A stretch of DNA of 64,000 nucleotides from an uncultured Candidatus Actinomarina sp. (lineage in GTDB: Bacteria; Actinomycetota; Acidimicrobiia; Actinomarinales; Actinomarinaceae). A program made the translations under genes and the position numbers. Below, piece after piece: positions 28,540 through 64,000 of this stretch; positions within the stretch are counted from its first letter, which is position 1, and the number at the start of each line of letters is the position of its first letter. The DNA is taken from the NCBI GenBank assembly GCA_902613615.1, contig CACMHQ010000002.1, positions 80,028-144,027 of the forward strand, written 5' to 3'. The notes below the pieces were generated by a model, which saw only the letters and a list, made by a program, of their open reading frames with translations, was not told the DNA's origin and ran no database searches.

Positions 28540-28946
28540 TGAAAGAAAATTTAGATATATCAATTGAAGATTATTTTCAAAAAGTCGAAGAGCTGAAAAA
28601 TGATGGATATGAAATGATGGTCGATTTAACTGCTATTGATTGGTTCAGAAAAAAAGAACCTAGGTTTGAAGTAGTTGTAAACTTTCTCTCCGTTTCAAAA
28701 AATAAAAGAATCTCTATCAAAGTCAAATTGAATGATGAGTTAACAATTCCTTCAATCACAAGTCTTTATCCAAGTGCAAATTTTTATGAAAGAGAAGTAT
28801 TTGATATGTTTGGAATTAATTTTGAAAATCATCCTGATTTAACAAGAATTCTCATGCCAGATGATTGGGTTGGACACCCTTTAAGAAAAGATTATGGGAC
28901 AGGAAGAATTCCAGTTCAATTCAAAAATGCACCAAAGGTTGATTAA
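28539..28946 (+). CDS. nuoC: NADH-quinone oxidoreductase subunit C (short form, 135 aa)
   Basis: [40 protein letters not shown]. Confidence 0.88.
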
Positions 28947-30304: not shown

Positions 30305-30915
30305 GTTGGGAAAAAGCATTGATTGATAAAGCAAAAGAAATTATTGATATGTACCCTCAAAAAAGATCTGCTTTAGGGCCACTTTTATATCTAGCACAAG
30401 AAAAAGACGGCTATATATCAAATGATTCAATTGTTGAGATTAGTAATCTTATTGGCATTACTGAAGTTCAAGTAAAGTCAGTAGCATCCTTTTACTCTAT
30501 GTACAAAGAAGAGCAAACTGGAAAGTATTTACTAAGTGTATGTAAATCAATATCTTGCGAAATAAATGACTCAAGAAGCGTGATAGATTCTGTCAAAAAC
30601 TTTACAGGCTTAGAAAATTATGAAACAGATACTGATAAGGTTTTTACTTTTGAGGAAGTTGAGTGCATCGGTGCTTGCGGAGGAGCGCCAGCTGTTCAGG
30701 TTAATTATGAAACAGTTGAAGGATTAACACCTGAAAAGTCACTCAAAATGTGCGAATGGCTTAAAGAAGAACGACCAGAAATAATTGTAGCTGAAGAACT
30801 TCAAGAGAAATTTGGAGGTGTAAAATCATTTGACTGGGCAATTGCAGACAATACAGGTTCATCTTATTCTGTTCCAGGATTCCAAAAAATCGGCACTGCT
30901 AAGGAAAAAAACTAA
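30301..30915 (+). CDS. nuoE: NADH-quinone oxidoreductase subunit E (24 kDa, 2Fe-2S)
   Basis: Thioredoxin-like fold with Cys ligands CKSISC...ECIGACGGAP. Confidence 0.9.
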   Translation: MSWEKALIDKAKEIIDMYPQKRSALGPLLYLAQEKDGYISNDSIVEISNLIGITEVQVKSVASFYSMYKEEQTGKYLLSVCKSISCEINDSRSVIDSVKNFTGLENYETDTDKVFTFEEVECIGACGGAPAVQVNYETVEGLTPEKSLKMCEWLKEERPEIIVAEELQEKFGGVKSFDWAIADNTGSSYSVPGFQKIGTAKEKN

Positions 30916-35630: not shown

Positions 35631-35637
35631 GAAAATT

Positions 35638-36252
35638 ATGAGTGCAGGTTATGACTTAGTTAAAGGATTAAAGGTAACTTTTAAAGAGCTATTCAAAAAA
35701 TCTGTAACTGATAAATACCCAAAAGAGTTTAGAAATAAACCACAAAGATTCCATGGAAGGCATGTTTTAAATAAATATGAAGATGGAATGGAAAAATGTA
35801 TAGGGTGTGAACTATGTGCTGGAGTATGTCCCGCCCAGTGTATTTACGTCAGAGGTGAGGACAATCCTGAAGAACAACCAGTAAGCCCAGGTGAGAGATA
35901 CGGTTTTATCTATGAAATAAATATGCTTAGATGTATTTATTGTGGTTTATGCGTTGAAGCATGTCCTACTGAAGCTATAACTATGACATCTTTATTTGAG
36001 ATGAGTGTTGGTTCTCGAGATGAAGCAGTATTTGATAAAGAGGTCTTATTGGTAGGAGATGATGGAAATCCAAATGTTCATGAGGAGCAAACACAATTAA
36101 CAAATTTTAATGAATTAAAAACAGCTGATGGATGGATGAGAGCAACATCATCGAATGGTAATCCAGACTATCAAAATATTATAAGCTGGACAGGGTCCCT
36201 AGGAGTTGGAAAAAGAGATCCTGAAAAGGGTCAATTTTTAGAAGAAGAATAG
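35638..36252 (+). CDS. nuoI: NADH-quinone oxidoreductase subunit I (2x[4Fe-4S])
   Basis: Two ferredoxin motifs, CIGCELCAGVCP and CIYCGLCVEACP. The longest ORF starts at 35611; the Met at 35638 has a better SD (AGGAAA) and matches the usual NuoI N-terminus. Confidence 0.88.
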   Translation: MSAGYDLVKGLKVTFKELFKKSVTDKYPKEFRNKPQRFHGRHVLNKYEDGMEKCIGCELCAGVCPAQCIYVRGEDNPEEQPVSPGERYGFIYEINMLRCIYCGLCVEACPTEAITMTSLFEMSVGSRDEAVFDKEVLLVGDDGNPNVHEEQTQLTNFNELKTADGWMRATSSNGNPDYQNIISWTGSLGVGKRDPEKGQFLEEE

Positions 36253-36253
36253 T

Positions 36254-36781
36254 GTGACAGATTTACTGCTATTTGCGATTCCTGGATTGTTTATAATTCT
36301 AGGAGCACTCATAGTAATTTTTGCCAGAAATCCAGTTCATAATGCAATGGGACTAGTGCTAACACTTACATCGCTAGCAATTTTATATATCTCTCTTAAT
36401 GCAACTTTCGTTGCTATGGTTCAAATGCTAGTTTATGCAGGCGCTGTAATGACATTATTTTTGTTTGTCATAATGATGATTGGTGTTGACAAACCAGAAC
36501 AAACTAAAGAGGAAATAAAAGGACAAAAATTATTAATATCTGGAACTTTAATTTTGTTAGTCTCGGTTATTGTCTTTATTGGTTTAGAAAATGGTTTAGA
36601 TTGGAATTTGTTACTTCCTCAATCTCAAAATACATTAGAAGGCACACCGTCACGTATAGCATCAGCAATGTTTACGTCGTGGGTCTTTCCCTTTGAAGTT
36701 ATATCAATACTTCTGATCGTTGCTACAACTGCAGCATTAGCTTTAGCTTATGAGTTTAGAAAAAGAGAGACTAATGATTGA
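36254..36781 (+). CDS. nuoJ: NADH-quinone oxidoreductase subunit J
   Basis: GTG start right after the nuoI stop. 5-TM ND6-like protein. Confidence 0.85.
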
Positions 36782-37082
36782 AGTAACCTCTGATTGGTAC
36801 CTAACTCTATCAGCCATACTTTTTTCAATTGGCTTCCTCGGTATTATGATTCGTAAAAATGCATTGATTATGTTTATGTGTATTGAGCTTATGCTTAATG
36901 CTGTTAATTTGACATTTATCACAGCTTCAAACCATTTGGGATTAGTTGATGGTCAGATTGCTGTCTTTTTTGTACTAGTCGTTGCTGCTGCCGAAGTTGT
37001 AGTTGGTCTAGCAATAATTGTTTCAATATTTAAAAAACAAGAATCAGCGTCTGTAGACATGTTAAGTTCTTCGAAGGGATAA
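36774..37082 (+). CDS. nuoK: NADH-quinone oxidoreductase subunit K
   Basis: ND4L-like 3-TM protein ([23 protein letters not shown]..., E residues in TM2/3). Probable start is the ATG at 36774 (ATGATTGA overlap); the longest ORF starts at 36750. Confidence 0.85.
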
Positions 37083-37084
37083 GT

Positions 37085-38974
37085 TTGGAAATTTTAATTC
37101 TAGGAGTATTACTAATTCCGTTTCTTACATCATTACTTTTAAAAGCTGCAGGTAAATACATGAATGAGTTACTTACAAATTTTGTAACTTTGAATGCCTC
37201 CCTTTTGTCTGTTGCAATATCTTTTTTCTTATTTGGATATATTTTTTTGGATAAATTCAAACCACTTAAGTTCGAGCTCTTTGAGTGGTTTCCTGATCCA
37301 CAAATAGTATTTGAATTTTATTTAGATGGACTATCTGGTGTAATGATGGTTTTAATTTCTACTCTAAGTCTTGTAATTCAACTTTTTTCAACCTCATATA
37401 TGAGCAAAGATGAAAAATACACAAAATACTTTGAATATTTCAATTTTTTTGTTTTTTCAATGTTACTCCTTGTGATGTCTGGAAATTTTTTAGTAATGTT
37501 TTTTGGATGGGAACTAGTTGGATTAAGCTCTTATCTCTTAATATCTTTTTGGTCAGAAAAGAAATCAGCATCAAAAGCAGGAAACAAAGCGTTTATTTTG
37601 AATAGGATAGGAGACTTTGGATTCCTTATTGGTCTCATGATGATTTTAAATTATTTTGAAACCTTTAACTTTTTGAGTATATTTGAAGACACTCTAAATA
37701 CAAGACCTGAAAATTTAGATCTTATGATTTTGTTTTTACTTTTAGGTGCTTTCGGAAAATCTGCTCAGTTTCCTTTATTCAGCTGGTTACCAGATGCAAT
37801 GGAAGGACCAACACCTGCAAGCGCATTGATTCATGCCGCAACAATGGTTACAGCTGGTGTGTTTATGCTGGTTAGAATTTCACCATTATTACAATTTTCA
37901 GAAATAGGAAGTATCACAATTATAAGTCTTGGACTTTTAACAGCTCTAATTTCTGCTTTCGCTGCGATAAATCAAGATGACATAAAAAAAGTTTTGGCTT
38001 ACTCAACAATTTCACAACTTGGATTTATGTTCATTGCTATTGGAGCAGGAGCCTATGTTGCAGCAATATTTCATCTTGTAACACATGCGTTTTTTAAAGC
38101 ATTGCTATTTCTCGGAGCAGGGGCTGTAATTCATGAAATGCATCACGAACAAAATATTTATAAAATGGGCGGACTTAGAAAAAAAATGCCAGTAACTGCT
38201 GCAATGATGGGAATTGGAACTTTAGCAATATCTGGTATTCCACCGCTAGCAGGATTTTGGTCAAAGGATGAAATACTAGCCTCGGTATTTGCTAGAGGAG
38301 GAATTTATTATGGATTCTGGGCTTTGTCTCTTTTAGCTGCATTAATGACTGCTTTTTATATGGGAAGGCACTGGCTGTTAATTTTTGTTAAAGAGCCATC
38401 CAATGAATTAGACAGTATAAATGAAGCACCAAAAAATATGACAAGACCTTTGATTTTACTTGGCCTTTTTTCTATTTTTATTGGATTTATAAATACACCT
38501 TTTTTTCATGGTTTAGAAAAAGTGTTACATGAAACTCTTTACAACGTAGAAGTTACGCACCTTCCAAAAGGTATAACACTAGCAGTTTTGGCATTTCTAT
38601 CAATTGGAGCAGGTTTTACAGGCCTTGCACTCGCGTACTTGATTTATATCTTTGATATTTTTACCTACTTTAAAATAAAAATACCTTTTTTAAAACAATT
38701 CAAAAAGCTTTCAAAAGATGTCCTTTATTTAAATAAAATTGGAAATCTAATTTTTGTAAAAGGCATGAAATCATTATCAAGAAAAGTAGCTGTAAGTGTT
38801 GATGGTATGACCATTGATGGATTTATAAATGGAGTAGCAAGGTCATTTTTAAAATCATCCCAACAAATTTCCTTTTCACAAACGGGTCTTGTTAGAAGCT
38901 ACGTTGTATATTTTGGACTTTTCATGTTGGCACTTATTCTTGTATTTTTATTATCTCCTGGAGTCTTATCATGA
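37085..38974 (+). CDS. nuoL: NADH-quinone oxidoreductase subunit L
   Basis: TTG start. Antiporter-like core (WLPDAMEGPTPASALIHAATMVTAGV) plus a C-terminal long helix region. Length 629 aa. Confidence 0.9.
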   Translation: MEILILGVLLIPFLTSLLLKAAGKYMNELLTNFVTLNASLLSVAISFFLFGYIFLDKFKPLKFELFEWFPDPQIVFEFYLDGLSGVMMVLISTLSLVIQLFSTSYMSKDEKYTKYFEYFNFFVFSMLLLVMSGNFLVMFFGWELVGLSSYLLISFWSEKKSASKAGNKAFILNRIGDFGFLIGLMMILNYFETFNFLSIFEDTLNTRPENLDLMILFLLLGAFGKSAQFPLFSWLPDAMEGPTPASALIHAATMVTAGVFMLVRISPLLQFSEIGSITIISLGLLTALISAFAAINQDDIKKVLAYSTISQLGFMFIAIGAGAYVAAIFHLVTHAFFKALLFLGAGAVIHEMHHEQNIYKMGGLRKKMPVTAAMMGIGTLAISGIPPLAGFWSKDEILASVFARGGIYYGFWALSLLAALMTAFYMGRHWLLIFVKEPSNELDSINEAPKNMTRPLILLGLFSIFIGFINTPFFHGLEKVLHETLYNVEVTHLPKGITLAVLAFLSIGAGFTGLALAYLIYIFDIFTYFKIKIPFLKQFKKLSKDVLYLNKIGNLIFVKGMKSLSRKVAVSVDGMTIDGFINGVARSFLKSSQQISFSQTGLVRSYVVYFGLFMLALILVFLLSPGVLS

Positions 38975-40461
38975 CAAGTTTGATTTATAGCTTTATATTG
39001 CTTCCAGTAATTAATTCAATATTAGTTTTTCTTATTCCAGATAGAAGGAAAGAACTCTTCAGGCCTTTAACAGTTTATTTAAGCTTGATCCCATTAGGTC
39101 TCTGTTTGTATATGTTTGTAAACCAAAATTTAAAAACAAGCTTTTTAGAAGTTGACTCAACACCTTGGATTACAGCATATGGAATAGATTTGATTATTGG
39201 ATTTTCTGGAATGTCATTTTTATTAATTACATTGAATTGTTTGCTTGTATTATTGTCAATTCTTTCACTAAATCAAGAATATGCAGAAAGTAAAGGATTT
39301 CTTGGATCAATCATGCTCTTACAAGCTGCTGTAAATGGAGTATTCTTGGCAGGTGATTTAGTTTCACTATTCATATTTTTTGAAGCCTTGCTAATTCCCA
39401 TGTATTTCTTAATGGGTATCTGGGGTGGAAGTAATAAAAGATATGCAACAATTAAATTTATTTTATATACAGTCTTTGGTTCAATTTTTATACTCGCTGG
39501 AACAATATATACAGGAGTTTTAAGTTACATTTCATCTGGAAAATTTGCGTTAGATTTTGAATCAATAGCATCTATGTCAATTTCGACCAGCCAGTCAGAA
39601 ATATTATTTTTATTATTCACATTTGGTTTCCTTATAAAAGTACCTTTATTTCCACTTCACACCTGGTTACCAGATGCTCACGTGGAAGCACCAACCGCGG
39701 GCAGTATTTTGTTGGCTGGAGTTCTTTTAAAAGTTGGAGCCTATGGAATATTAAGAGTTTCAATTCCTTTTTTTACAGAAGGATTTCTTAGGTACCAATT
39801 CATAATTGCATTTTTATCTGTTGTAGGGATAATTTACGGTGCAATCGTAGCAATTGTTCAAATAGACATTAAAAAACTGATTGCATATTCCTCAATAAGC
39901 CACATGGGATTTGTAATGCTTGGTATTTCAGCAGGAAGATACTTAAGTCTGGAAGGTGCTGTAATTCAAATGATAAATCACGGTATAACTTCTGGTGCAT
40001 TATTTATGCTTGTTGGATTTTTATATGATCGAAGACACACAAGGAGAATATCAGATTTTGGGGGTTTGAGAAAATCAATGCCTATATATGCATCAATATT
40101 TTTATTTTCCTCATTTGCTTCAATAGGATTACCAGGACTTAATGGATTTGTTGGTGAGTTTATGATTTTAATGGGAAGCTATCCGACTTTTAAAGTTCTG
40201 ACCTCTGTTGCAGCATTTGGTGTTGTCCTTGCAGCAATTTATATGCTTTGGGCTTATCAAAGGATGTTTAATGGACAATTAGATAATGATGAAAATTCTG
40301 TGTTAACAGATCTAAATACAAAAGAACTGGTAGCTGTAGGTCCATTACTTGCTTTAATGTTGTTCATTGGCATATATCCGAGCTTTATAGAAAGCTACGT
40401 CGTTCAAGATGTATCAGTAATTTATGAATCAATTAGCAATCTCTTAGGAGCTTCACAATGA
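38971..40461 (+). CDS. nuoM: NADH-quinone oxidoreductase subunit M
   Basis: ND4-like motif TWLPDAHVEAPTAGSILLAGVLLK. Confidence 0.9.
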   Translation: MTSLIYSFILLPVINSILVFLIPDRRKELFRPLTVYLSLIPLGLCLYMFVNQNLKTSFLEVDSTPWITAYGIDLIIGFSGMSFLLITLNCLLVLLSILSLNQEYAESKGFLGSIMLLQAAVNGVFLAGDLVSLFIFFEALLIPMYFLMGIWGGSNKRYATIKFILYTVFGSIFILAGTIYTGVLSYISSGKFALDFESIASMSISTSQSEILFLLFTFGFLIKVPLFPLHTWLPDAHVEAPTAGSILLAGVLLKVGAYGILRVSIPFFTEGFLRYQFIIAFLSVVGIIYGAIVAIVQIDIKKLIAYSSISHMGFVMLGISAGRYLSLEGAVIQMINHGITSGALFMLVGFLYDRRHTRRISDFGGLRKSMPIYASIFLFSSFASIGLPGLNGFVGEFMILMGSYPTFKVLTSVAAFGVVLAAIYMLWAYQRMFNGQLDNDENSVLTDLNTKELVAVGPLLALMLFIGIYPSFIESYVVQDVSVIYESISNLLGASQ

Positions 40462-41930
40462 GTGAAATTAGTGCAGCAATAGGTTTTAATTTAATTGTAA
40501 TTTCTCCAACCATTGCTTTAGTTGGTACAGCCTTGGTTCTTCTATTTTTTACAATCACTATTGAATCTAATGAAATTGTAAAAAAATCAATTACGTTTAT
40601 GGGAATGCTTATTACTTCTTTTTGTGTATTTTTAAAGTTTGGATTGTTTTTAGAGAATGGAGTAAGTTCATATTTCACTCAAAAAATATTATTAGACGAA
40701 TTTTCTCTGTTTGGTAATGTCTTAATTTCGCTTATTTTATTATTTAATTTTTTACCTATTTGGGACTCATCAAAACAATTAAAAGAAAAAACAACGGAGG
40801 CAATAATTCTCACTCTGATGAGTGCTTCTGGCTTTATGTTAATGGTGGACTCTGAAAATTTAATAATGTTATTTATTGGTTTGGAGATTGGTTCTATTAG
40901 TTTATATGCTCTGGCTGGTCTTAATAGAGGTGACAAGCTTAGTAACGAGGCTTCCCTAAAGTATTTCCTATTAGGATCACTCGCATCTTGTATATTGATT
41001 TATGGTGTCTCTTTAGTCTACGTATCTTTTTCAGTTTTTAGTGTTTACAACTTTGCCTTAGGTATCGCTTATGTTGGACCTGATTCTGTACCACTTACAA
41101 CATCAATTGGTGTTTTACTTATTTTTGTTGGTTTACTATTTAAAATTGCTGCTGCACCTTTTCAATCCTGGGCTCCTGATGTTTATCAAGGTTCACCAAC
41201 GGGATATGTTGGATTTATGTCTTCAATAGCTAAAGTTTCATCATTTATTGTTATTGCAAGACTTTGTTTGGTATCAATAAACTTTATTATCGAAGATTTC
41301 AATACCTTCTTTTTAATAGTTATTATTTCTTCTGCTCTCATTGGTTCTTTATTTGCATCTATACAAGAAGATTTAAAAAGGCTTTTAGCTTATAGTGGTG
41401 TAGTCCAGTCTGGATTTATTTTATCTGGAATTGTATCAGGTATAAATGGAACAAGCGCATCTATGTTTTATCTATTTACTTATATACTCCAATTAATCGG
41501 AATATTTATGATTTTTTCAATTATAAATGGAAAACTATCATCAGAATTTAACATTCAAAGTATTCAAGGATTATTTATAAATAATCGTTTTCTTGCCACT
41601 TCATTTTGTGTATTTATGTTTGGTTTAGCCGGAATTCCTCTAACAAGCGGATTCGTGTCGAAATTTATTTTGTTAACAAACTTATGGGCTTATGAAAAAT
41701 ATCTCCTTGTTTCAATTCTTTTATTGTCAACAGTTGCAGGATTTTATTTTTACTTGAGACCAATTTGGATAGCAACTATTGAAAAGACAGAAGCACCTAT
41801 AGAGACATTGAAATTAAAAAAATCAGAATATTTTGTAATTACAACTTTAGCGACACTGACTATATTTTTTGGCCTTGTTCCTAGCTCATTGATAAATATT
41901 TCAAGATGGATAGTACAGAGTTATCTATGA
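40458..41930 (+). CDS. nuoN: NADH-quinone oxidoreductase subunit N
   Basis: ND2-like motif SWAPDVYQGSPTGYVGFMSS. Last gene of operon 1. Confidence 0.9.
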   Translation: MSEISAAIGFNLIVISPTIALVGTALVLLFFTITIESNEIVKKSITFMGMLITSFCVFLKFGLFLENGVSSYFTQKILLDEFSLFGNVLISLILLFNFLPIWDSSKQLKEKTTEAIILTLMSASGFMLMVDSENLIMLFIGLEIGSISLYALAGLNRGDKLSNEASLKYFLLGSLASCILIYGVSLVYVSFSVFSVYNFALGIAYVGPDSVPLTTSIGVLLIFVGLLFKIAAAPFQSWAPDVYQGSPTGYVGFMSSIAKVSSFIVIARLCLVSINFIIEDFNTFFLIVIISSALIGSLFASIQEDLKRLLAYSGVVQSGFILSGIVSGINGTSASMFYLFTYILQLIGIFMIFSIINGKLSSEFNIQSIQGLFINNRFLATSFCVFMFGLAGIPLTSGFVSKFILLTNLWAYEKYLLVSILLLSTVAGFYFYLRPIWIATIEKTEAPIETLKLKKSEYFVITTLATLTIFFGLVPSSLINISRWIVQSYL

Positions 41931-50103: not shown

Positions 50104-50105
50104 AT

Positions 50106-53413: not shown

Positions 53414-53779
53414 ATGATTTCTTATTTTCAGGATTACGTTACTGTTGGGGCGATGATAGGTCTCGGACTTGTCTTGTTTCTAGTTTTTATTTCTGTGTCT
53501 GCATTACTAAGCCCCAAAAAACCAACTCCAGAAAAAGTTAAAACATACGAGTGCGGAGTAGATCCAGTAGGTGGTGGATGGAGCCAAACTTATGTTAGAT
53601 ACTATATATTTGGTTTATTATTTGTAATTTTTGACGTTGAGGCAGTATTTATTTTTCCATGGGCACTAAATCTTGAAAATCTTGGATACTTTGGCTTGGT
53701 TGAAATGTTTATCTTTATTTTTATTCTCTTACTTGGTTTGATATATGCCATTAGAAAGGATGTCCTCAAATGGGAGTAA
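53414..53779 (+). CDS. nuoA: complex I-like subunit A (operon 2)
   Basis: [11 protein letters not shown]...[23 protein letters not shown]. Confidence 0.88.
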
Positions 53780-54267
53780 TTGAAAAGTTTGGTATCCCCA
53801 AGCCTATTTCTAAAATATTGAATTGGGCAAGAGCATATGATATGTGGTATTTCCAATTTGGTTTAGCATGCTGTGCCATTGAAGTTATGGCAGCAAGTGG
53901 ACCAAGACATGATTTTATGAGATTAGGTATAATTCCACTTCCTGCATCGCCAAGGCAAGCTGACCTAATGGTTGTAGCAGGTACTGTGACCGATAAAATG
54001 GCCCCGGCAGTTAAAAGATTATATGATCAAATGCCGGAACCAAAGTATGTAATTTCAATGGGTTCATGTTCAAACAGTGGGGGACCGTATTGGGATTCTT
54101 ACTCTGTTACAAAAGGAGTAGATCAATTAATTCCAGTTGACGTTTATGTTCCCGGATGTCCTCCAAGACCGGAAGCTTTGCAAGAAGGAATAGTTTTATT
54201 ACAGAAAAAAATAAAAGGTGAAGATATGAAAGAAAAGTGGAGAGAAAAAGACATTGAACCAGTCTGA
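53770..54267 (+). CDS. nuoB: complex I-like subunit B (operon 2)
   Basis: All four N2 ligands present: [30 protein letters not shown]. Confidence 0.9.
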
Positions 54268-54814
54268 TCAAAACGAATTCGTAAATTCAATTCAAAGTAA
54301 ATTTCAAAATTCATCAGTTGAATTTGATACATTAAAAATTGAAGTAGATTCTCAGTCTTGGGTTGATACGCATAAAACATTGAAATCAGAATTTGATTTA
54401 AAATTTTTTAATTGGCTATCTGCTGTTGACTGGGATAACGATGTAAAAATTGGTGACGCACCAAAAGAACCAGTAACCCCAAGTTTTGAAATAATAAGTT
54501 GTTTATCAAAAACAAATTCTGACGACTTAGTTATATCATCTACAAAGATTTCAAAAGAGGATCCGCAGATTGATTCATTAGTTGAAGTTTTTGGTGGAGC
54601 GAACTGGCATGAAAGAGAAGCTTATGAAATGTTTGGTATAAATTTCTTGAACCATCCAAATTTAAAGAAACTTTATCTTCCTGATGCTTATGAAGGGAAT
54701 CCTCTACTTAAATCATTTGAGTTAATAAGTAGAGAAGTTAAACCTTGGCCAGGTGAAGTTGATGTAGAAGGTATGCCAGAAGATAACATCGTGGTCTCAG
54801 AAGAGGGTAGCTAA
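54254..54814 (+). CDS. nuoC: complex I-like subunit C (operon 2)
   Basis: [31 protein letters not shown]. Length 186 aa. Confidence 0.88.
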
Positions 54815-56010
54815 TGGCTCAAACAATGGATCCAAACAATATGCCAATTTTATCTGAAGCATCAGTTTCTGTTGAAATAGAAACAGAAGATATGACTTTA
54901 AATATTGGTCCTCAACATCCATCGACTCACGGTGTTTTGAGGTTAGTAGCTAAAATTAATGGAGAAAAAATATCCAGTGTTGAACCTGTACTTGGATATA
55001 TGCACAGAGGATATGAGAAACTTGCAGAGGTCAGAACTTATCCACAAGTAACAACATTAGTAAATAGAATTGACTGGGTTTCAGGATTTGCGAATGAGAT
55101 TCCATTTATCGCTGGTGCTGAAAAATTAATGGAAATCGAAGTACCTGAAAGAGCACAATACATCAGACTGATTTTGACAGAAATGGCAAGAATAAGCTCC
55201 CACTTTGTTTTTAATGGTGCTTTCCCCCTCGAAATTGGTGCACTAACACCTATATTTTTAGCTATGGAAGATCGAGAAAGAGTTCTTGATTTACTTGAAT
55301 CAGTTACCGGTGGAAGATTTCATCCAAACTTTAATCGAATTGGTGGGGTAAAACCTGCCGCAGGTGCTGGGCCAACAACAAAAAAAGACATACAGGATTT
55401 ACCGGCAGGATTTTATCACGATACCAAAGTTGCAATGCAAAAAGTTCTTGAAGCTGTTGATAGATTTGAAGATTTAATAGGCGGAAATGAAGTATTTCAA
55501 CTTAGAACAAAGAATGTTGGTGTATTACCAAAAGAAGTTGCCGAAGATTATGGAGTATCTGGTCCAATATTGAGAGCATCAGGTGTTGAGTTTGATTTGA
55601 GAAAACAATCAAACTACTTACCATATGACAAATTTGATTTCGAAATACCAATAGGTGAAAATGGTGACTGTTTTGATAGATGGTCTGTAAGAACATCCGA
55701 AATGAGAGAATCTGCAAAAATTATTTTACAAGCAATTGAAGACATGCCTTCTGGACCAATCCAGGCAAAGGTACCAAAAGTTATAAAAGTTCCTAAAGGG
55801 CAAACATATGTAAGAGCAGAAAACCCAAAGGGTGAAATGGGATATTATATTATTTCTGAAGGTGGTTTAGGACCTTATAGGTTAAAAATAAGAACAGCTT
55901 CATTTAGTAACATTTCAATTTTGCCAATCATGCTTGAGGGGGCCTTGCTTCCTGACTTGATAGCAATAATGGGTAGTTTAGATTTTGTTCTTGGAGATGT
56001 AGACAGATGA
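54814..56010 (+). CDS. nuoD: complex I-like subunit D (operon 2)
   Basis: NIGPQHPSTHGVLRL, RASGVEFDLRK, C-terminal DFVLGDVDR. There are no NiFe-hydrogenase CxxC motifs, so this is a genuine complex I type. Confidence 0.9.
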   Translation: MAQTMDPNNMPILSEASVSVEIETEDMTLNIGPQHPSTHGVLRLVAKINGEKISSVEPVLGYMHRGYEKLAEVRTYPQVTTLVNRIDWVSGFANEIPFIAGAEKLMEIEVPERAQYIRLILTEMARISSHFVFNGAFPLEIGALTPIFLAMEDRERVLDLLESVTGGRFHPNFNRIGGVKPAAGAGPTTKKDIQDLPAGFYHDTKVAMQKVLEAVDRFEDLIGGNEVFQLRTKNVGVLPKEVAEDYGVSGPILRASGVEFDLRKQSNYLPYDKFDFEIPIGENGDCFDRWSVRTSEMRESAKIILQAIEDMPSGPIQAKVPKVIKVPKGQTYVRAENPKGEMGYYIISEGGLGPYRLKIRTASFSNISILPIMLEGALLPDLIAIMGSLDFVLGDVDR

Positions 56011-56987
56011 GTTTTAGTACCGAGTTACTTATCAAAGTTTTGGTTGTTTTAGCTACAGCTCCAGTTATGGCCTTAGGACTTACATTGCTAGAGGTTAAAG
56101 GTTCTGCCTGGATGCAAAGGCGACCAGGTCCTCTTCATGTTGGTTTAAGAGGTTTTATATTTCCACTAGCAACAGCTGCAAAATATTTACAAAAGGAAAC
56201 AATCATTCCAAATGATGTTGACGAACCCGTATTTAAGTGGGCGCCAGCTTGGGTTATAGCTGCTGTAGTAGGCCTATTCACAATTATTCCATTAAGCCCT
56301 ACATTAATTGTTCGTGATCTGGAACTGGGTGTTTTCTTTTTACTTGCAATTAGCTCCATTTCCACCATTGGAGTCCTTACCGCTGGATGGTCTTCTGCAA
56401 ACAAATTTTCTCTAATGGGTGGCTTAAGAGCAGCAGGTCAACTTATTGCTTATGAATTGCCACTTATTTTATCTGTAGTTGGTGTCGTTATACAAGCTGA
56501 AACAATGTCAACAGTTGGAATAGTTGAAAAACAGATTGAATTTGGTTTTCCTTTTGTAATAGCAGGACAGGGTATTGCTTTTATTATTTTTATGATTGCT
56601 GCAACTGCTGAAATGATGAGAACACCATTTGATATGCCAATTGGCGAATCTGAATTAACCATGGGCTTTTTTACAGAATATTCTGGCATTAGATTTCTTA
56701 TTTTTTATATTTCTGAATATATAAATTTATTTGTAATGTGTGCGATTGCCTCAACTCTTTTTTTGGGGGGTTATCATGTCCCACTTTTACCGACAGAATG
56801 GGTTAATTTTTATGGTCCATTGGTTCTAATTGGAAAGACATTTTTACTAGCATTTATCCTCATTGCTATTAGATGGTCTTTTCCACGATTTAGGGAGGAT
56901 CAACTTCAGACTCTTGCTTGGAAAATCCTTATACCTCTATCTCTTTTGAATATAATGGCTACAGCAATCATGAAAGTTGTTTTTTAA
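56007..56987 (+). CDS. nuoH: complex I-like subunit H (operon 2)
   Basis: ND1 motifs (WMQRRPGP..., TEYSGIRFLIFYISEYINLF). It directly follows nuoD; there is no nuoEFG. Confidence 0.9.
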   Translation: MSFSTELLIKVLVVLATAPVMALGLTLLEVKGSAWMQRRPGPLHVGLRGFIFPLATAAKYLQKETIIPNDVDEPVFKWAPAWVIAAVVGLFTIIPLSPTLIVRDLELGVFFLLAISSISTIGVLTAGWSSANKFSLMGGLRAAGQLIAYELPLILSVVGVVIQAETMSTVGIVEKQIEFGFPFVIAGQGIAFIIFMIAATAEMMRTPFDMPIGESELTMGFFTEYSGIRFLIFYISEYINLFVMCAIASTLFLGGYHVPLLPTEWVNFYGPLVLIGKTFLLAFILIAIRWSFPRFREDQLQTLAWKILIPLSLLNIMATAIMKVVF

Positions 56988-57472
56988 TGCAAAAATTCAA
57001 ACCAAAGATTCCTGGATTTTTAACTGGACTAAAAATTGTTATTGGCAATATGTTTAAAACCCTTCTTCCTTTTTTTGAAAATCCTAACGTTAATTATCCA
57101 TTTGAAAAAGAAATACTCGCACCGAGAACTAGGGGTGTCATTGCTTTAGATTCTGAAGCATGTACAAGTTGCATGTTGTGTGCAAGATCTTGTCCCGACT
57201 GGTGTATTTACATAGAGGGTCACAAAGAACTACAACCTCCCTCAAAACCAGGAGGACGTCAGAGAAGCAGGGCAGTACTCGATCGGTTTGATATTGATTA
57301 TGCACTTTGTATGTATTGTGGGATATGCGTTGAAGTATGTCCATTTGATGCATTGTTCTGGTCACCGGAATACGAATATTCAGAATTTTCTATGGGTGAT
57401 ATGCTCCATGATAAAGACAGGCTTGACGAATGGTTAAAGACAGTTCCTGAAGGTCCAGGTTTAGAGAGCTAA
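56987..57472 (+). CDS. nuoI: complex I-like subunit I (operon 2)
   Basis: CTSCMLCARSCP and CMYCGICVEVCP. The start is set at the ATG overlapping the nuoH stop (TAATG); the longest ORF starts at 56918. Confidence 0.88.
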   Translation: MQKFKPKIPGFLTGLKIVIGNMFKTLLPFFENPNVNYPFEKEILAPRTRGVIALDSEACTSCMLCARSCPDWCIYIEGHKELQPPSKPGGRQRSRAVLDRFDIDYALCMYCGICVEVCPFDALFWSPEYEYSEFSMGDMLHDKDRLDEWLKTVPEGPGLES

Positions 57473-57990
57473 TGGAAGCAATAGACATATTTTCATATTT
57501 TCTTTTGCTGTTGCTATTACTTAGTGGAGTAAAAGTTGTTACCACTTCAAATGTTATCCACGCTGCAATATTTTTAGTATTTACTCTTGCTACTACTGCT
57601 GTTTTATTCATTTTATTATCTGCTGAATTTGTAGCTTTAGTCCTAATACTTGTATATATAGGAGCAGTTATTGTTCTATTTTTATTTGGTGTGATGATCA
57701 CTAGAGCTCCTTTAGGTCCAAACGCTGAACTAGATAATGATCAAAATAAATTAATGGCTGCTGTAATATCACTATCAATTTTTGGAATATTTACATATAT
57801 TCTTCTACAAACATTTGACTCAACAGTTGTTATTAGTGAAGGAACATCTACTAAATTATTAGGAGAAATTTTGTTGAGTAGATTTGTCTTTCCTTTTGAG
57901 CTAGTTTCATTTGTTTTGTTGGGAGCTTTAATTGGAGGCATTACACTAGCAAGAAAAGATAATGCATTAATGGACGAAGACCAAATATGA
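57472..57990 (+). CDS. nuoJ: complex I-like subunit J (operon 2)
   Basis: ND6-like 5-TM protein. Confidence 0.85.
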   Translation: MEAIDIFSYFLLLLLLLSGVKVVTTSNVIHAAIFLVFTLATTAVLFILLSAEFVALVLILVYIGAVIVLFLFGVMITRAPLGPNAELDNDQNKLMAAVISLSIFGIFTYILLQTFDSTVVISEGTSTKLLGEILLSRFVFPFELVSFVLLGALIGGITLARKDNALMDEDQI

Positions 57991-58292
57991 GCATTCAACC
58001 ATTGCTAATTGCAGCAGCAGCATTGTTCTCGATAGGCATTTATGGAATTCTTGTCCGAAGAAACGCAGTAATGGTTTTACTTTCAATTGAGCTGATTCTC
58101 AATTCAGTAAATATAAATTTTGTTGCATTCAATGCTATGCTTTCAGATGTTTTTTTAAATGGCCAGATTTTTTCAATATTTATTATCACAATTGCAGCAG
58201 CAGAAGTTGGTATTGGATTAGCTATTGTTCTAATGCTTTTCAGAAATCGAGAAACAGCCAATATTAATGAATTTGATTTAATGAAATGGTGA
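57987..58292 (+). CDS. nuoK: complex I-like subunit K (operon 2)
   Basis: ND4L-like, 101 aa (LLSIELILNSVNINFVAF). Confidence 0.88.
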   Translation: MSIQPLLIAAAALFSIGIYGILVRRNAVMVLLSIELILNSVNINFVAFNAMLSDVFLNGQIFSIFIITIAAAEVGIGLAIVLMLFRNRETANINEFDLMKW

Positions 58293-60304
58293 ATCAGAAT
58301 TTTATAAATTTACTCGCTGAGGGTAAGCCAGAATATACTGATGGTGGTGTACTCGCTGAATTTACTTGGTTGATCGTTGTACTTCCTTTTTTAGCTGCAA
58401 TTTTGATTACTTTTCTTGGAAAATATCTCCCATTACAAGGTGCAGAACTAGCTTTAGGAACAGTTTTATTCATATTTTCATATAGCGCAGCTTTGCTTTA
58501 TGAGCATGCGACAAAAGGAATCGCCAATGAATTTTTTATCAACGTAGGAAGTATTGGTTCTTATGATCTTGAGTTTGGCTGGGTCGTAGATGGATTGTCT
58601 ATTATGATGTACTTCGTAGTTGGTACTGTTTCATCTTTAGTTTTTATATATGCAACAAATTATATGCAAGGTGAAATAAGATATACTTTCTTTTTCACAT
58701 CACTCACATTATTTGCGGGGAGTATGTTAGTTTTAGTCTCTTCTCCAACACTTTTGCAATTGTTGATTGGTTGGGAATTAGTTGGAGTTTGTTCTTATCT
58801 ACTAATTGGCCATTACTGGGAAAAAAAGGAAAATTCTTCCGCAGCGATGAAAGCATTTATAACTAATAAAATTGCTGATGTTGGGTTAATGATTGGAATC
58901 ATTGTTCTTGCTTTATCAACAAAAACCTTGAGAATTTCTGAGATATTGTATCAATCAACTCATGATTATGTTGATATCAAAACCGTAGCATATTTGGGCG
59001 GAGTACTTCTTTTCATAGGTGCAATGGGAAAGAGTGCCCAATTTCCACTTCATGTATGGTTACCTGATGCAATGGCAGGACCAACACCAGTATCTGCTTT
59101 AATGCATGCAGCAACCATGGTAACCGCGGGTGTCTATCTTCTTGGCCGCATGTTTCCTTTCTACCAAGGAATGGCCTCACAAGCCCTAGATATAGTTCTT
59201 TTATTTGGAGTAATAACACTTCTTGGAGCAGGATTAGTTGCCGTAGTTCAGGATGATCTCAAAAAAGTTCTTGCATATTCAACAGTAAGTCAACTTGGTT
59301 ATATGGTTACAGCAATGGGTTCAGGTGCATACACTGCAGGTCTTTTTCATCTATGGACTCATGCATTTTTTAAAGCTTTATTATTTTTAGGTGCTGGCTC
59401 GGTAATTCATGCAGTGCACACAAATAACATGTCTGAAATGGGTGGACTAAGGAAAGAAATGCCCAGAACATTTTCAACTTTCATTATTGGAACGGTAGCC
59501 CTTGCTGGACTTCCTCCATTAGCTGGATTTTTCTCAAAAGATGAAATACTCGCATCACTGAATCACGAAGGGCATAATTTATATTTTATTATTTCAGTTC
59601 TTGGAGCCTTTATTACTGCGTTTTATATGACAAGAGCAGTTCTTTTAACATTTTTTGGTGATTATCGGGGCGATGGACACCCTCACGAATCTGACAAAAT
59701 GATGACAATTCCTTTGATAATATTATCAGGCTTTGCCATTGTTGCAGGATGGGCAAACATACCTGGTGTTTATACAGGATTTACAAAATGGGTTACAACC
59801 AGGAAAAATTATATTGTAGAATATCATCCTGAATCATTTGATTTGGTTGCTATGTTCAGTGGTCTTACATCTGGACTTTTGGGTATTGGACTTGCCTACT
59901 ACGTCTATCAAATGTCAGGAAATGCAACTGACGGCGATGAAAAAATTAAAATAAAACCAATATGGAATTTATTGGAAAATAAATACTACTTAGATTTTTT
60001 CTACTTCAAATTCATAATTGATCCTGTAAAAATAACTTTTGCTAAATTTGTTGACTCATTTAATTCAAATGTCCTTGATCGGTTTGTTAATGGTGTTGGG
60101 ACAACTGCTTCAAAAGCAGGAGGAATTGTATATACAAATCTTGACCAAGGAGGTATTGACAAGGTACTTAATTTATCCTCAACAGGTACAGACACTATTG
60201 GTAGTAAAGTCAAATTAATTCAAACTGGTAAAACTCAACAGTACTTAATGTATTTTTTAATAGGAGTGATAGTTATTAGCTTAATAATTTTGTTAGTGTT
60301 ATGA
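58286..60304 (+). CDS. nuoL: complex I-like subunit L (operon 2)
   Basis: 672 aa with VWLPDAMAGPTPVSALMHAATMVTAGV and a long C-terminal helix. Confidence 0.9.
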   Translation: MVNQNFINLLAEGKPEYTDGGVLAEFTWLIVVLPFLAAILITFLGKYLPLQGAELALGTVLFIFSYSAALLYEHATKGIANEFFINVGSIGSYDLEFGWVVDGLSIMMYFVVGTVSSLVFIYATNYMQGEIRYTFFFTSLTLFAGSMLVLVSSPTLLQLLIGWELVGVCSYLLIGHYWEKKENSSAAMKAFITNKIADVGLMIGIIVLALSTKTLRISEILYQSTHDYVDIKTVAYLGGVLLFIGAMGKSAQFPLHVWLPDAMAGPTPVSALMHAATMVTAGVYLLGRMFPFYQGMASQALDIVLLFGVITLLGAGLVAVVQDDLKKVLAYSTVSQLGYMVTAMGSGAYTAGLFHLWTHAFFKALLFLGAGSVIHAVHTNNMSEMGGLRKEMPRTFSTFIIGTVALAGLPPLAGFFSKDEILASLNHEGHNLYFIISVLGAFITAFYMTRAVLLTFFGDYRGDGHPHESDKMMTIPLIILSGFAIVAGWANIPGVYTGFTKWVTTRKNYIVEYHPESFDLVAMFSGLTSGLLGIGLAYYVYQMSGNATDGDEKIKIKPIWNLLENKYYLDFFYFKFIIDPVKITFAKFVDSFNSNVLDRFVNGVGTTASKAGGIVYTNLDQGGIDKVLNLSSTGTDTIGSKVKLIQTGKTQQYLMYFLIGVIVISLIILLVL

Positions 60305-60320: not shown

Positions 60321-61898
60321 TTGAGTAGTTTTTCTTTTTTGGAGAGTGGATTAGGTTTAACCGTAGTAGTTTTTCTTCCGCTTGTATCCGCAATATTTAT
60401 ATTCTTAATACCTAAGAAACAAGAGATGCTAATTAAATTAGTAACTCTTGGATCTGCACTACTTACTTTTGGAGTAAGTTTAATTGTTGCCTTACAATTT
60501 GATTTTAATAATGCTGGTGACCTTCAGCTTGGTACTAAGGTCTCATGGATTAGTAGTATTAATTCAAATTATGAAATAGGCATAGACGGTATTTCTTTAC
60601 CTTTATTACTTTTATCTACTTTCATTTCTGTATTAGCAATTATTTATTCTTTTGAACATTTACCTGAACCAAAAAATGCAAAAGGAATGATGTCTTTGAT
60701 TTTAATTTTAGAAACTGGAATGAATGGTACATTTGTGGCATTAGATCTAATTTTATTTTTTGTGTTCTTTGAACTTGTTTTACTACCAATGTATTTCATG
60801 ATTGGTATTTGGGGAGATAAAACTGTCAGAAGTGTTTCTGGACTTAAGAATGATATTGAAACAAGACTTTATGCAAGTATTAAGTTTTTTGTATTTACTT
60901 TATTTGGATCTGCTTTCATGCTTTTAGGATTCCTAGGTTTATATTTCAGGGGAAATAGAACATTTAGTATTCCCGAACTAATTGAGCTTGGCTCTAGTGG
61001 AGCATTTACAGGTACATTTGCAACGTTAGTTTTTGCTGTTTTATTTTTGGGCTTTGCAGTAAAAGTACCAATGTGGCCACTACATACATGGTTGCCTGAT
61101 GCACACACAGCTGCACCAACTGTTGGATCTGTTTTATTAGCTGCGATTTTATTAAAACTTGGATCCTATGGTTTTGTAAGAATTGCTTTACCTATTCTTC
61201 CAGAACAGGCTGTTGCTTGGGCTCCAGCTATTGCAGTGCTATCAGCAATTGGAATAATATACGGCTCTCTTGCTTGCTTGGCACAAACAGACCTTAAAAG
61301 ATTGATTGCATTTTCTTCAGTAGGACATATGGGCTTTGTAATGCTTGGGATATCTTCACTCACCTCAATAGGTATTAATGCTGCAATGATTGGAATGGTT
61401 GCCCACGGAATAATTACTGGTTTATTGTTTTTTGTTTCTGGTTCTATGGCACATACTTATCACACCAGAGACATGGGAAGACTAGGTGGAAATATGAAAC
61501 TTCTTCCAAAGACTGGAGCCATTTTAGCTTTTACAGCTATGGCGTCACTTGGCTTACCCGGATTGGCAGGATTTTGGGGAGAATTTATGGCTCTCCTTGG
61601 AGCATATAATCCATTACCTGGTTTAAATATTACAATTTTTAGATCCTCCATGGTTGCAGGTGCAATTGGAACTGTTTTAACAGCAGGTTATTTATTATGG
61701 ATGCTTCAAAGAGTTAATCTTGGTGAACCTAAAGAAGAATGGTTAGATAAAGAGCTTCATGATGCGGATAATTATGAGCTTGTTGCTTGGATACCTTTAG
61801 TAATACTTACTGTTCTAATCGGAGTATTTCCAAAGCTTATATTTGGAGCAACTAATGATGCAGTTATTGCTTTGGTATCTAAAGCGTTCGGAGGCTAA
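60321..61898 (+). CDS. nuoM: complex I-like subunit M (operon 2)
   Basis: TWLPDAHTAAPTVGSVLLAAILLK. Confidence 0.9.
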   Translation: MSSFSFLESGLGLTVVVFLPLVSAIFIFLIPKKQEMLIKLVTLGSALLTFGVSLIVALQFDFNNAGDLQLGTKVSWISSINSNYEIGIDGISLPLLLLSTFISVLAIIYSFEHLPEPKNAKGMMSLILILETGMNGTFVALDLILFFVFFELVLLPMYFMIGIWGDKTVRSVSGLKNDIETRLYASIKFFVFTLFGSAFMLLGFLGLYFRGNRTFSIPELIELGSSGAFTGTFATLVFAVLFLGFAVKVPMWPLHTWLPDAHTAAPTVGSVLLAAILLKLGSYGFVRIALPILPEQAVAWAPAIAVLSAIGIIYGSLACLAQTDLKRLIAFSSVGHMGFVMLGISSLTSIGINAAMIGMVAHGIITGLLFFVSGSMAHTYHTRDMGRLGGNMKLLPKTGAILAFTAMASLGLPGLAGFWGEFMALLGAYNPLPGLNITIFRSSMVAGAIGTVLTAGYLLWMLQRVNLGEPKEEWLDKELHDADNYELVAWIPLVILTVLIGVFPKLIFGATNDAVIALVSKAFGG

Positions 61899-62011: not shown

Positions 62012-63382
62012 ATGGTTTCAATTCTTGGATCGCTATTTGCATTCCTTCCAATTATTTTTCAATTTGCCAACTATACAACTCCAGAAATTATGTTTGAGGG
62101 AAGTTATGTAATTGATAAATTTTCCTTGATTCTAAAAGGCCTATTTATATTGGTTACGTATCTGACATTTTTATTGTCCGTAAATTTTGTAGAAAGTGAT
62201 GAATATTACCAGGGAGAATATTATTTTCTTCTGTTAAGTTCTCTCCTTGGAGCATTAGTAGTAACCTCTTCAAGAGATTTACTAACAATGTTTATTGGAA
62301 TTGAATTAGCTTCAACGCCAATGTTTCTATTATCTGGCTGGAAAAAAGGCGATCAAAAATCAAATGAAGGTTCAATTAAATTCTTTTTATTGGGAGTACT
62401 ATCAGCATCTTTAATTCTTTATGGTTTTTCACTACTTTATGGAGTAACTGGAAAGTTAGTTTTTTCAGATATAGCTAATATTTTAATTCAGCAAGATCTT
62501 GCCCAATCACCTGTTGCTTTATTAAGCGCAATACTTATTTTGGCGGGTATAGGCTTCAAGATATCGATAGTTCCATTTCACTCTTGGGCACCTGATACTT
62601 ATGAAGGTGCACCTTTACCAGTAACGGCTTATCTATCTGTTAGCTCCAAAGCGACTGGCTTTGTTGCATTAATTATTTTGATGTCAAAAATATTTTTTGA
62701 ATCTGGAGATGGATTGGGGATAATACTTGTATTCATTTCTGGAATAACAATGTTTGTTGGTAATTTATCAGCTTTACAACAAACAAATCCAGTAAGACTT
62801 CTAGCATATTCATCGATTGCACAGGCAGGGTTTATTATTGCCCCGATAGCTGTTGCAAACATAACAAATAATTTTGAAGATGGTGTCTATGCAAGTGTTA
62901 CGTATCTAATTATTTATGCATTTATGAATATAGGTGCATTTTTAGTGATTAATTTGTTACAAAGAAATATTGACTCAGAAAACATGTATGACTGGGGAGG
63001 TCTTGCAAAAGAAACACCATTAGCAGGAATCTTTGCAGTAATATTTTTCTTCTCTCTTGCAGGGATTCCACCTCTTGGAGGATGGTTCGCAAAATTTGTA
63101 GTTTTCAGAAGCTTACTAAGCACAGGTGAAATTTTTGGATTATCTCTAGCTATAGTTGGTGCTATTAATGCTGTAATAGGCTTGGTGTATTATTCAAGAA
63201 TTTCAAAAATTATATGGATGGATAGTCCAAAAGAAGATGTTCAAAAGACCGAAAATTCGATCATCCCAAGCCCACTAAAAGTTGTTGGTTTTGTAAGTTT
63301 AATTTTGACAATTGTATCTGGAATTTTTCCAGGCATATTCAGCAATCTAGGTGAAGCTTCATCAATATTTTTTAATAGCTAA
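62012..63382 (+). CDS. nuoN: complex I-like subunit N (operon 2)
   Basis: ND2-like motif SWAPDTYEGAPLPVTAYLS. Coordinates are for the canonical ATG ORF. The conserved first TM helix continues in-frame upstream to about 61901 (a possible ATT start behind a GGAGG SD). Confidence 0.85.
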   Translation: MVSILGSLFAFLPIIFQFANYTTPEIMFEGSYVIDKFSLILKGLFILVTYLTFLLSVNFVESDEYYQGEYYFLLLSSLLGALVVTSSRDLLTMFIGIELASTPMFLLSGWKKGDQKSNEGSIKFFLLGVLSASLILYGFSLLYGVTGKLVFSDIANILIQQDLAQSPVALLSAILILAGIGFKISIVPFHSWAPDTYEGAPLPVTAYLSVSSKATGFVALIILMSKIFFESGDGLGIILVFISGITMFVGNLSALQQTNPVRLLAYSSIAQAGFIIAPIAVANITNNFEDGVYASVTYLIIYAFMNIGAFLVINLLQRNIDSENMYDWGGLAKETPLAGIFAVIFFFSLAGIPPLGGWFAKFVVFRSLLSTGEIFGLSLAIVGAINAVIGLVYYSRISKIIWMDSPKEDVQKTENSIIPSPLKVVGFVSLILTIVSGIFPGIFSNLGEASSIFFNS

Positions 63383-63386
63383 TTAA

Positions 63387-64000
63387 GTGGTAGAAAAAAA
63401 ATTTATTGATTACCTCAAAAATAAATACAGTAAAAACTATTTATACTTTGATGAATTCATGCAGGAATGTCTTTATTCTGATTATGGATTTTTTGCAAAG
63501 GGCGAAGTCCGCTCCAGTAAATCTGGTGATTTTTTAACCTCACCAGAAGTATCTAATTATTTTGGATTATTTATTTCAAACTGGATTAAAGAAAATAGAA
63601 TCAATAGCGATTCAAATATACTTGAAGTTGGAGCAGGAACAGGTTCACTTGCGAATCAGGTGTCAAAGTATCTTGAAAAAGAAATCTATGTTTCCGAAAT
63701 TTCGTTAAATGCCTTAAAAGCACTTAAAAGTAAAAATTTTTTGGTTGATAGCAATTTAGACAACTATGGTTCATCTCAGATAAAAACTATTTATATGAAT
63801 GAAGTGTTAGATAATATACCTTGTTCTGTCGGTATAGAAGTAGACAATACTTGGTATGAAAAAACAATTGAATTTACAAAAGATAATGAACTTAGATATG
63901 GAAAAGTAGAAATGCGTGAATCAAATCTTAAATGGATTAAAAAATATAATTGTTTAGATAACCAAGATAATGAGCTTGAAATTCAACACAATACAGAACA
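63387..64000 (+). CDS. MidA/NDUFAF7-family (DUF185) class I SAM-dependent methyltransferase, 5' part; the gene runs off the window
   Basis: GTG start 4 nt after the nuoN-2 stop. LYFDEFMQECLYSDYGFFAKG and GDFLTSPEVSNYFGLFISNWI match the MidA signature (FM...LY.P..GYY; DFxT(A/S)PE(I/L)SxxFGE...W). The SAM motif is LEVGAGTGSL. Confidence 0.75.
   Translation, partial: MVEKKFIDYLKNKYSKNYLYFDEFMQECLYSDYGFFAKGEVRSSKSGDFLTSPEVSNYFGLFISNWIKENRINSDSNILEVGAGTGSLANQVSKYLEKEIYVSEISLNALKALKSKNFLVDSNLDNYGSSQIKTIYMNEVLDNIPCSVGIEVDNTWYEKTIEFTKDNELRYGKVEMRESNLKWIKKYNCLDNQDNELEIQHNTE

Follow-up and report, generated by a model that had tools for sequence, protein, structure and literature searches.

The last gene in the 64,000-nucleotide stretch analyzed here (the window; uncultured Candidatus Actinomarina sp., contig CACMHQ010000002.1, positions 80,028 to 144,027) codes for a S-adenosylmethionine (SAM)-dependent methyltransferase of the MidA/NDUFAF7 family and directly follows an 11-gene operon for a complex I-like enzyme (nuo-2), this linkage being conserved in the class Acidimicrobiia. 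The same window holds a canonical 14-gene complex I operon (nuo-1). As judged from the aligned subunits, the canonical substrate arginine of this methyltransferase family appears only in the complex encoded beside the MidA gene. With a little more confidence than doubt, we propose that the MidA-type enzyme made together with nuo-2 methylates Arg65 of the NuoD-2 subunit during maturation of the 11-subunit enzyme. The argument builds on the following features:

63387..64000, forward strand: first 204 codons of the MidA/NDUFAF7-family (PF02636, COG1565) SAM-dependent methyltransferase gene, which is cut by the window end
63380..63386, forward strand: nuoN-2/MidA junction, with the stop codon TAA at 63380-63382, then the 4 nucleotides TTAA, and the GTG start at 63387
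55006..55008, forward strand: AGA codon of NuoD-2 Arg65 (GYMH-R65-GYEK), homologous to NDUFS2 Arg-85 (bovine, human) and to Paracoccus Nqo4 Arg-65
53983-53985, forward strand: codon of NuoB-2 Thr72 (VVAG-T72-VTDKMAP), at the position of Thermus thermophilus Nqo6 Arg83
29264..29266, forward strand: ACT codon of NuoD-1 Thr107 (GYLH-T107-GMEK), so that the methylation site lacks an arginine, a situation shared with T. thermophilus and Mycobacterium smegmatis
28288..28290, forward strand: AGA codon of NuoB-1 Arg71 (IVAG-R71-VSQKMAP), aligning with Nqo6 Arg83, the compensating arginine of the residue switch described below
54940..54942, forward strand: codon of NuoD-2 Arg43 in the HGVLRL motif, which is not the known methylation site
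55075..55077, forward strand: TGG codon of NuoD-2 Trp88, which aligns with the quinone-ligating Tyr87 in T. thermophilus Nqo4

The codon directly 5' of the GTG start is an in-frame TAA, and the frame stays open for 204 codons up to the window end, for which our own calculation gave a chance probability of ~9e-8 at 32% GC (the G+C content of the window is ~33%). The start can be taken as real because orthologues share its position, some of them with ATG, as well as the conserved N-terminal 24 residues including an invariant Phe21. Full-length orthologues consist of 344 amino acids and are 97-99% identical to the window fragment. On DNA level, the region 53387-64000 shares 96.8-98.1% identity with single-cell genomes that carry the label Candidatus Actinomarina. 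Loci of this same identity range contain the C-terminal half of the domain with its DYG, PG-x-x-DIT, and Q-x-x-FL motifs, which here would lie beyond the window end.

The window open reading frame is a MidA/NDUFAF7-family methyltransferase according to Pfam, profile search against the PDB, and predicted fold. The best Pfam match of the 204-residue fragment is PF02636 (Methyltransf_28, formerly DUF185/MidA) with 27.9 bits versus a cut-off of 23.3. The fragment also lies just above the cut-off of PF05219 (26.7 versus 26 bits) and has weak sub-threshold matches to many methyltransferase families, while its NCBIfam matches were limited to generic methyltransferases, all of them sub-threshold. For the full-length orthologue P0001 (98% identical), PF02636 was the sole family above cut-off, scoring 81.7 bits with a match that spans positions 7-242 of the 249 in the profile. 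This establishes for the full length, by way of the orthologue, the assignment to PF02636 (former DUF185) and COG1565 that the original prediction had anticipated. Sequence matches of the fragment in the PDB were led by Dictyostelium MidA (5ZTZ), followed by 1ZKD (the DUF185 protein of R. palustris) and 4F3N (the COG1565 protein of Burkholderia). The clade profile recovered the same three entries in a different order (4F3N 3e-48, 1ZKD 4e-36, 5ZTZ 7.6e-30), with the next match at 8.5e-4. Hundreds of conserved homologues were found.

Motif analysis is in line with this assignment. A family-specific segment located N-terminal of the Rossmann fold, GDF-x-T-(S/A)-PE-x-S...FG, is present as SGDFLTSPEVSNYFG (residues 46-60) and aligns with 5ZTZ, 1ZKD, and 4F3N. 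Within the fragment, GDFLTSPEVS begins at residue 47, EVGAGTGSL at 80, and MNEVLDNIP at 137. The class I SAM-binding motif I (E-x-G-x-G-x-G) and the NE-x-x-D-x-x-P motif are thus both present, their positions being invariant in the clade alignments. Conservation was judged on family-invariant positions: D48, T51, and P53 are invariant among distant homologues, and the residues retained throughout the clade comprise D48, T51, E80, G82/84/86, E104, N138, E139, and D142 together with D223/Y224/D260 (full-length orthologue numbering). The AlphaFold2 model of P0001 (an orthologue, of whose 344 residues the window holds 204) reached a predicted local distance difference test score of 85.3 and a predicted template modeling (TM) score of 0.86. 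Submitted to Foldseek against the PDB, the six top matches of this model were all MidA/COG1565 structures (1ZKD, 4F3N, 5ZU0, 5ZTZ, 4G67) with E-values of 1e-13 to 3e-16 and TM-scores of 0.70-0.76, and the next methyltransferases followed at 4e-7 and TM-scores <0.45. The agreement of the MidA-specific motif, the PDB profile, and the fold bears out the expectation that the gene codes for more than a generic class I methyltransferase.

Substrate considerations required a correction of the target residue. The original prediction had placed the methylated arginine in the HGVLRL motif of NuoD. This arginine does occur in both NuoD copies (54940-54942 in NuoD-2; R85 of NuoD-1 with its codon at 29198-29200 instead of the previously given 29201), but it is not the known methylation site. 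It was rejected as the target because, in the mature bovine 49-kDa subunit, the symmetrically dimethylated residue was mapped to Arg-85, within the peptide KCDPHIGLLHRGTEK and an HRGxE motif (Carroll et al. 2013). The sequence context of the NDUFS2 site, KCDPHIGLLH-R-GTEK, is distinct from HGVLRL. The same dimethylarginine is present in the human, Pichia, and Paracoccus denitrificans (Nqo4 Arg-65) enzymes, and T. thermophilus has a threonine at this site (Carroll et al. 2013). Later work introduced the name HRGxE for this motif and located its arginine at a distance of 3.7 Å from the iron-sulfur cluster N2. A published "inter-subunit residue switch" describes the Thermus configuration, in which the NuoD position is occupied by threonine and an arginine of NuoB (Nqo6 Arg83) fills the same space.

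Both published solutions are realized in the window, according to the aligned residues: nuo-2 combines the arginine in NuoD with a threonine in NuoB, and nuo-1 has the reverse configuration. The site-bearing peptides are PVLGYMHRGYEKLAE in NuoD-2 and PVIGYLHTGMEKTGE in NuoD-1, and the residue correspondence was confirmed by HMMER alignments to the T. thermophilus and M. smegmatis subunits. The pattern is fixed among the linked orthologues examined, with arginine at the HRGxE site in all 45 of 45 NuoD-2 sequences and threonine at the switch position in 34 of 34 NuoB-2 sequences. Since NuoD-1 carries a threonine, the canonical 14-subunit enzyme cannot be a substrate at this position, and the canonical substrate arginine is accordingly predicted for the complex encoded beside MidA only. 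Moving the target from HGVLRL to HRGxE therefore renders the link between MidA and nuo-2 more specific; methylation itself is not thereby demonstrated.

The position of the gene, 4 nucleotides after the nuoN-2 stop and on the 11-subunit instead of the canonical operon, proved to be as originally described; nuoN-1 is followed by an ABC transporter gene, with no MidA gene there. To what extent this arrangement is conserved was assessed by a forward scan of one genome per GTDB species, using a narrower clade alignment as query and yielding 80 loci (a broad 26-sequence alignment was unusable as scan query, being without a conserved stretch). Wherever an Actinomarinales locus includes upstream sequence, MidA comes next after the 11 nuo-2 genes, separated from them by 2-8 nucleotides and with the same start. 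Another 47 loci stem from other Acidimicrobiia, their MidA being only ~30% identical to that of the window; 39 of them were informative and 8 were too short. MidA directly follows a nuoN-2-type gene in 15 of these 39 and lies 0.5-7 kilobases (kb) 3' of nuo on the same strand in a further 12, resulting in 27 of 39 linked loci in total. In the reverse test, for which nuoN-2-type proteins were picked only for long contigs (L084-L088), an 11-gene nuo operon with a downstream PF02636 gene was found on five out of five contigs, the latter being the very next gene on four. Linkage of nuo-2 and MidA is consequently conserved in the class Acidimicrobiia, as the original prediction had expected for related genomes. 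At the junction itself, neither a Shine-Dalgarno-like sequence was visible nor a terminator-like site detected; the promoter and terminator scan (51000-64000) is uninformative because its counts did not exceed chance expectation. MidA would most likely be co-transcribed with the 11-gene nuo-2 operon.

According to the proposed mechanism, MidA would be produced together with the nuo-2 subunits and would methylate Arg65 of NuoD-2 with SAM as the methyl donor, either before or during the association of NuoD-2 with NuoB-2. In homologous enzymes this arginine lies a few Å from cluster N2, and its methylation would shape N2's second coordination sphere. We infer a catalytic activity of the protein, its specificity for arginine, and NuoD-2 as its substrate, and the modification may in turn affect assembly or the N2 potential. 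A precedent is given by the complex I of Paracoccus denitrificans, which is dimethylated at the same arginine.

Several observations weigh against this mechanism. The equivalent E. coli residue, NuoCD Arg-249, is unmodified, so that the arginine alone is insufficient (Carroll et al. 2013). With Trp88 in NuoD-2, the active-site chemistry may differ from that of the enzymes in which methylation was studied. The clade profile scores the Burkholderia COG1565 protein above the alphaproteobacterial or eukaryotic MidA. Among the 39 distant loci that were informative, 12 have no nuo gene within 5-10 kb upstream, and outside the class, no nuo adjacency was found within 6 kb of three gammaproteobacterial homologues (Legionella birminghamensis L089, Nitrosococcus halophilus L090, and the metagenome contig L091).

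The further objections support a rival explanation that we regard as rather unlikely, namely that this MidA-family methyltransferase has another substrate (protein, nucleic acid, or small molecule) and is found next to nuo-2 by descent of a chromosome block and tight packing. Synteny indeed reaches far past any plausible operon, from the phosphodiesterase gene via nuo-2, MidA, and an M48 peptidase gene to the secE-nusG-rplKA region, and as a consequence the Acidimicrobiia loci are not independent observations; nevertheless, the linkage persists down to ~30% MidA identity and in all five reverse tests. The pair of MidA and M48 peptidase is kept in loci without upstream nuo (e.g., L042, L053, L054, L058, L074), and the 12 loci with a gap carry unrelated insertions between nuoN-2 and MidA. 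The gammaproteobacterial homologues reside in a pterin/folate neighborhood, with a PTPS (PF01242) gene directly 3' in two of them and folB-folK 5' in the third. DNA methylation has been reported for a Wolbachia MidA produced in E. coli, whereas the experimentally characterized family members that we found in the literature act on the NuoD homologue. Short gaps are common in this genome: outside the nuo operons of the window, 15 of 26 junctions between genes on the same strand measure <=10 nucleotides, and the median intergenic distance reported for the order Actinomarinales is 2 bp (López-Pérez et al. 2020). We therefore rejected the 4-nucleotide spacing as evidence of coupling, it being an ordinary gap size in this streamlined genome. 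What argues for NuoD-2 as the substrate is instead the presence of the exact target motif in this adjacent subunit and its absence from NuoD-1.

Methylation of NuoD-2 would also be dispensable if the protein were mainly a non-catalytic assembly chaperone that binds NuoD-2 and serves the NuoB/C/D module of the 11-subunit enzyme. NDUFAF7 has been described as an assembly factor binding NDUFS2 directly, and the operon position would be compatible with a stoichiometric helper, but the clade-wide retention of the SAM-binding glycine motif and of invariant acidic and polar residues suggests a working enzyme, which makes this role improbable. Finally, the reading that the frame is open by chance, or that a generic class I methyltransferase has been mistaken for MidA, as might be read from the fragment's weak matches to many methyltransferase families, is already refuted and retains practically no weight given the length of the frame, the hundreds of homologues, the MidA-specific motif upstream of the Rossmann fold, PF02636 as the sole family above its cut-off for P0001 (the fragment just clearing PF05219 as well), and the clean separation of MidA structures from other methyltransferases by Foldseek.

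NuoD-2 is unusual at its quinone site, too. In canonical complex I, the quinone head group is ligated by a tyrosine (Tyr87 in T. thermophilus, Tyr144 in Yarrowia). From the canonical pair (T. thermophilus His38 and Tyr87), NuoD-2 keeps the histidine (H39) and replaces the tyrosine by tryptophan, which holds for 45 of 45 NuoD-2 orthologues; NuoD-1 keeps its tyrosine (Tyr130). In addition, NuoD-2 is without ~22 residues corresponding to ~315-336 of T. thermophilus Nqo4, contains a 13-residue insert around 180-193, and can be aligned over its whole length with the Pyrococcus MBS and MBH large subunits. Judging from these residues, the 11-subunit enzyme may not be an ordinary quinone reductase and may possess an unusual acceptor site. 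These features of NuoD-2 limit the extent to which the mitochondrial precedent can be transferred. Taken together with the switch, they lead us to a broader picture, tentative and in our view somewhat short of an even chance: Acidimicrobiia cells would contain two complex I isoforms, a canonical one taking its N2 arginine, unmodified, from NuoB, and a NuoEFG-less, tryptophan-bearing one taking it from NuoD with a dedicated, operon-encoded MidA.

The nuo-2 operon (53414-63382) was annotated by Pfam and comprises 11 genes in the order A B C D H I J K L M N:

53414..53779, forward strand: nuoA-2 (PF00507, 122.9 bits)
53770..54267, forward strand: nuoB-2 (PF01058), with the cysteine motifs for cluster N2, the tandem CC among them
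54254..54814, forward strand: nuoC-2 (PF00329)
54814..56010, forward strand: nuoD-2 (PF00346, 282 bits), coding for the predicted methyltransferase substrate, aligned to T. thermophilus Nqo4
56007..56987, forward strand: nuoH-2 (PF00146)
56918..57472, forward strand: nuoI-2 (Fer4 families)
57472..57990, forward strand: nuoJ-2 (PF00499)
57987..58292, forward strand: nuoK-2 (PF00420)
58286..60304, forward strand: nuoL-2 (PF00361, PF00662)
60321..61898, forward strand: nuoM-2 (PF00361)
62012..63382 (from the first canonical start), forward strand: nuoN-2 (PF00361)

Pfam detected no nuoE, nuoF, or nuoG within this operon, and no gene for FpoF or another input module was seen in it. NuoF/G-like genes 5' of MidA in three distant loci (L053, L058, L062) were considered as the missing input module and rejected, as they are of the formate dehydrogenase type in L053, the only one of these loci for which Pfam was run. 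There, a cluster a few kb 5' of MidA and outside any nuo operon (3178-7301) codes for a molybdopterin oxidoreductase, a NuoE-NuoF fusion, and a NuoG-like iron-sulfur protein. A recurring extra operon member between nuoN-2 and MidA was likewise rejected, the intervening genes of the 12 gap loci being heterogeneous and non-respiratory (e.g., a cation-chloride cotransporter). As a side observation, the nuoN-2 frame is open and conserved on protein level for ~37 codons 5' of the first ATG (62012), up to ~61901, a stretch that contains no ATG, GTG, or TTG. A GGAGG (61890-61894) precedes the ATT codons at 61901 and 61907, and the relative L001 has TTG where the window has TTC. The true start of nuoN-2 is probably a non-canonical ATT at 61901 or 61907.

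Further features of the window are the canonical operon and the genes 5' of nuo-2:

27668..41930, forward strand: canonical nuo-1 operon, 14 genes A-N including E, F, and G (Pfam)
51353-52177: heliorhodopsin gene (PF18761, 301 bits)
52252-53337, reverse strand: PF01663 phosphodiesterase/nucleotide pyrophosphatase gene, divergent and 5' of nuoA-2

Within nuo-1, NuoC-1 is short (135 amino acids), and NuoD-1 starts with a strongly acidic N-terminal extension of ~65 residues (28946-29140, residues 1-65) to which no solved NuoD aligns, all matches beginning at residue 64-71. Just 5' of nuo-2, genes for an iron(III) ABC transporter (binding protein, permease, ATPase) are followed by the heliorhodopsin gene (block 47336-52177), in agreement with the published Actinomarinales arrangement. 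The PF01663 gene occupies the same position on four distant Acidimicrobiia contigs (L084-L087, positions 1-943) and consequently forms part of the conserved block. On the other side, the M48 (HtpX-like) peptidase gene lies 3' of MidA in Actinomarinales and many other Acidimicrobiia loci (L001, 7365-8204; also L042, L048, L052-L054, L058, L060, L069, L073-L075, L080, L086, and others), and rhodanese and PfkB genes further 3' of MidA were found in Actinomarinales loci only.

This arrangement has been described before. A heliorhodopsin gene between two nuo clusters of Ca. Actinomarinales, one of them without EFG and possibly F420-linked, was noted by López-Pérez et al. (2020). In its bioRxiv version, the study of Bulzu et al. 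(2021) lists for Ca. Actinomarinales the same unit as found here, composed of afuABC, heliorhodopsin, the nuo operon with 11 subunits, NDUFAF7 (K18164/PF02636), htpX, and genes for a rhodanese and an adenosine kinase, and refers to NDUFAF7, htpX, and pspE as accessory components for complex assembly. The main text of the mSphere version (PMC8612252) mentions neither NDUFAF7 nor complex I, which leaves the bioRxiv text as the source of the earlier description. The position of MidA after nuo-2 is thus already known, and so are bacterial MidA homologues and the dimethylarginine in bacterial complex I. As far as we found, the corrected target residue together with the Arg/Thr switch between both operons, the class-wide linkage, and the tryptophan of NuoD-2 are new to the literature. 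The role of the dimethylarginine beside N2 may consist in assembly, in tuning of the N2 redox potential, or in ordering of the quinone site. A lineage with the methyltransferase in the operon of one isoform and the Thermus-type, unmodified solution in the other would represent a useful comparative system. If our proposal holds true, arginine dimethylation of complex I would not be confined to proteobacteria and mitochondria but would extend to Actinomycetota, and it would track the configuration with arginine in NuoD, offering a natural comparison for the role of the modification.

Compared with known systems, the window protein shares with NDUFAF7/MidA (human; Dictyostelium 5ZTZ/5ZU0) the PF02636 family, the N-terminal GDFxT(S/A)PExS segment, and the class I SAM fold (predicted TM-score ~0.72), and the HRGxE arginine dimethylated by NDUFAF7/MidA enzymes occurs in the adjacent NuoD-2. 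In contrast, sequence identity is ~20%, and a bacterial gene that lies within a nuo operon or terminates it stands against a nuclear gene for a mitochondrial protein; as partner it has an 11-subunit enzyme that is devoid of NuoEFG and carries tryptophan in place of the quinone-site tyrosine. The complex I of Paracoccus denitrificans offers the same motif, with Nqo4 Arg-65 dimethylated, in a bacterial enzyme, which there is the canonical 14-subunit, NADH-oxidizing form of a proteobacterium. The alphaproteobacterial MidA homologue of R. palustris (1ZKD) is the best structural match to the P0001 model. To our knowledge, the alphaproteobacterial MidA gene is not located in a nuo operon. Bacterial MidA homologues have already been proposed to catalyze the arginine dimethylation of complex I. 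By sequence profile (3e-48), the closest solved relative is the COG1565 protein of Burkholderia thailandensis (4F3N/4G67). In its gene set A B C D H I J K L M N without the NADH-oxidizing module, nuo-2 resembles, as do the operons of L084-L088, the 11-subunit "ancestral" complex I/Fpo-like enzymes; for the EFG-less nuo cluster of Actinomarinales, F420 or another electron donor was suggested (López-Pérez et al. 2020). With the complex I of Thermus thermophilus and Mycobacterium smegmatis, finally, nuo-1 shares the threonine in NuoD and the arginine in NuoB, and this arrangement, unlike that of nuo-2, belongs to an operon without a link to MidA, thereby providing a control within the same genome.

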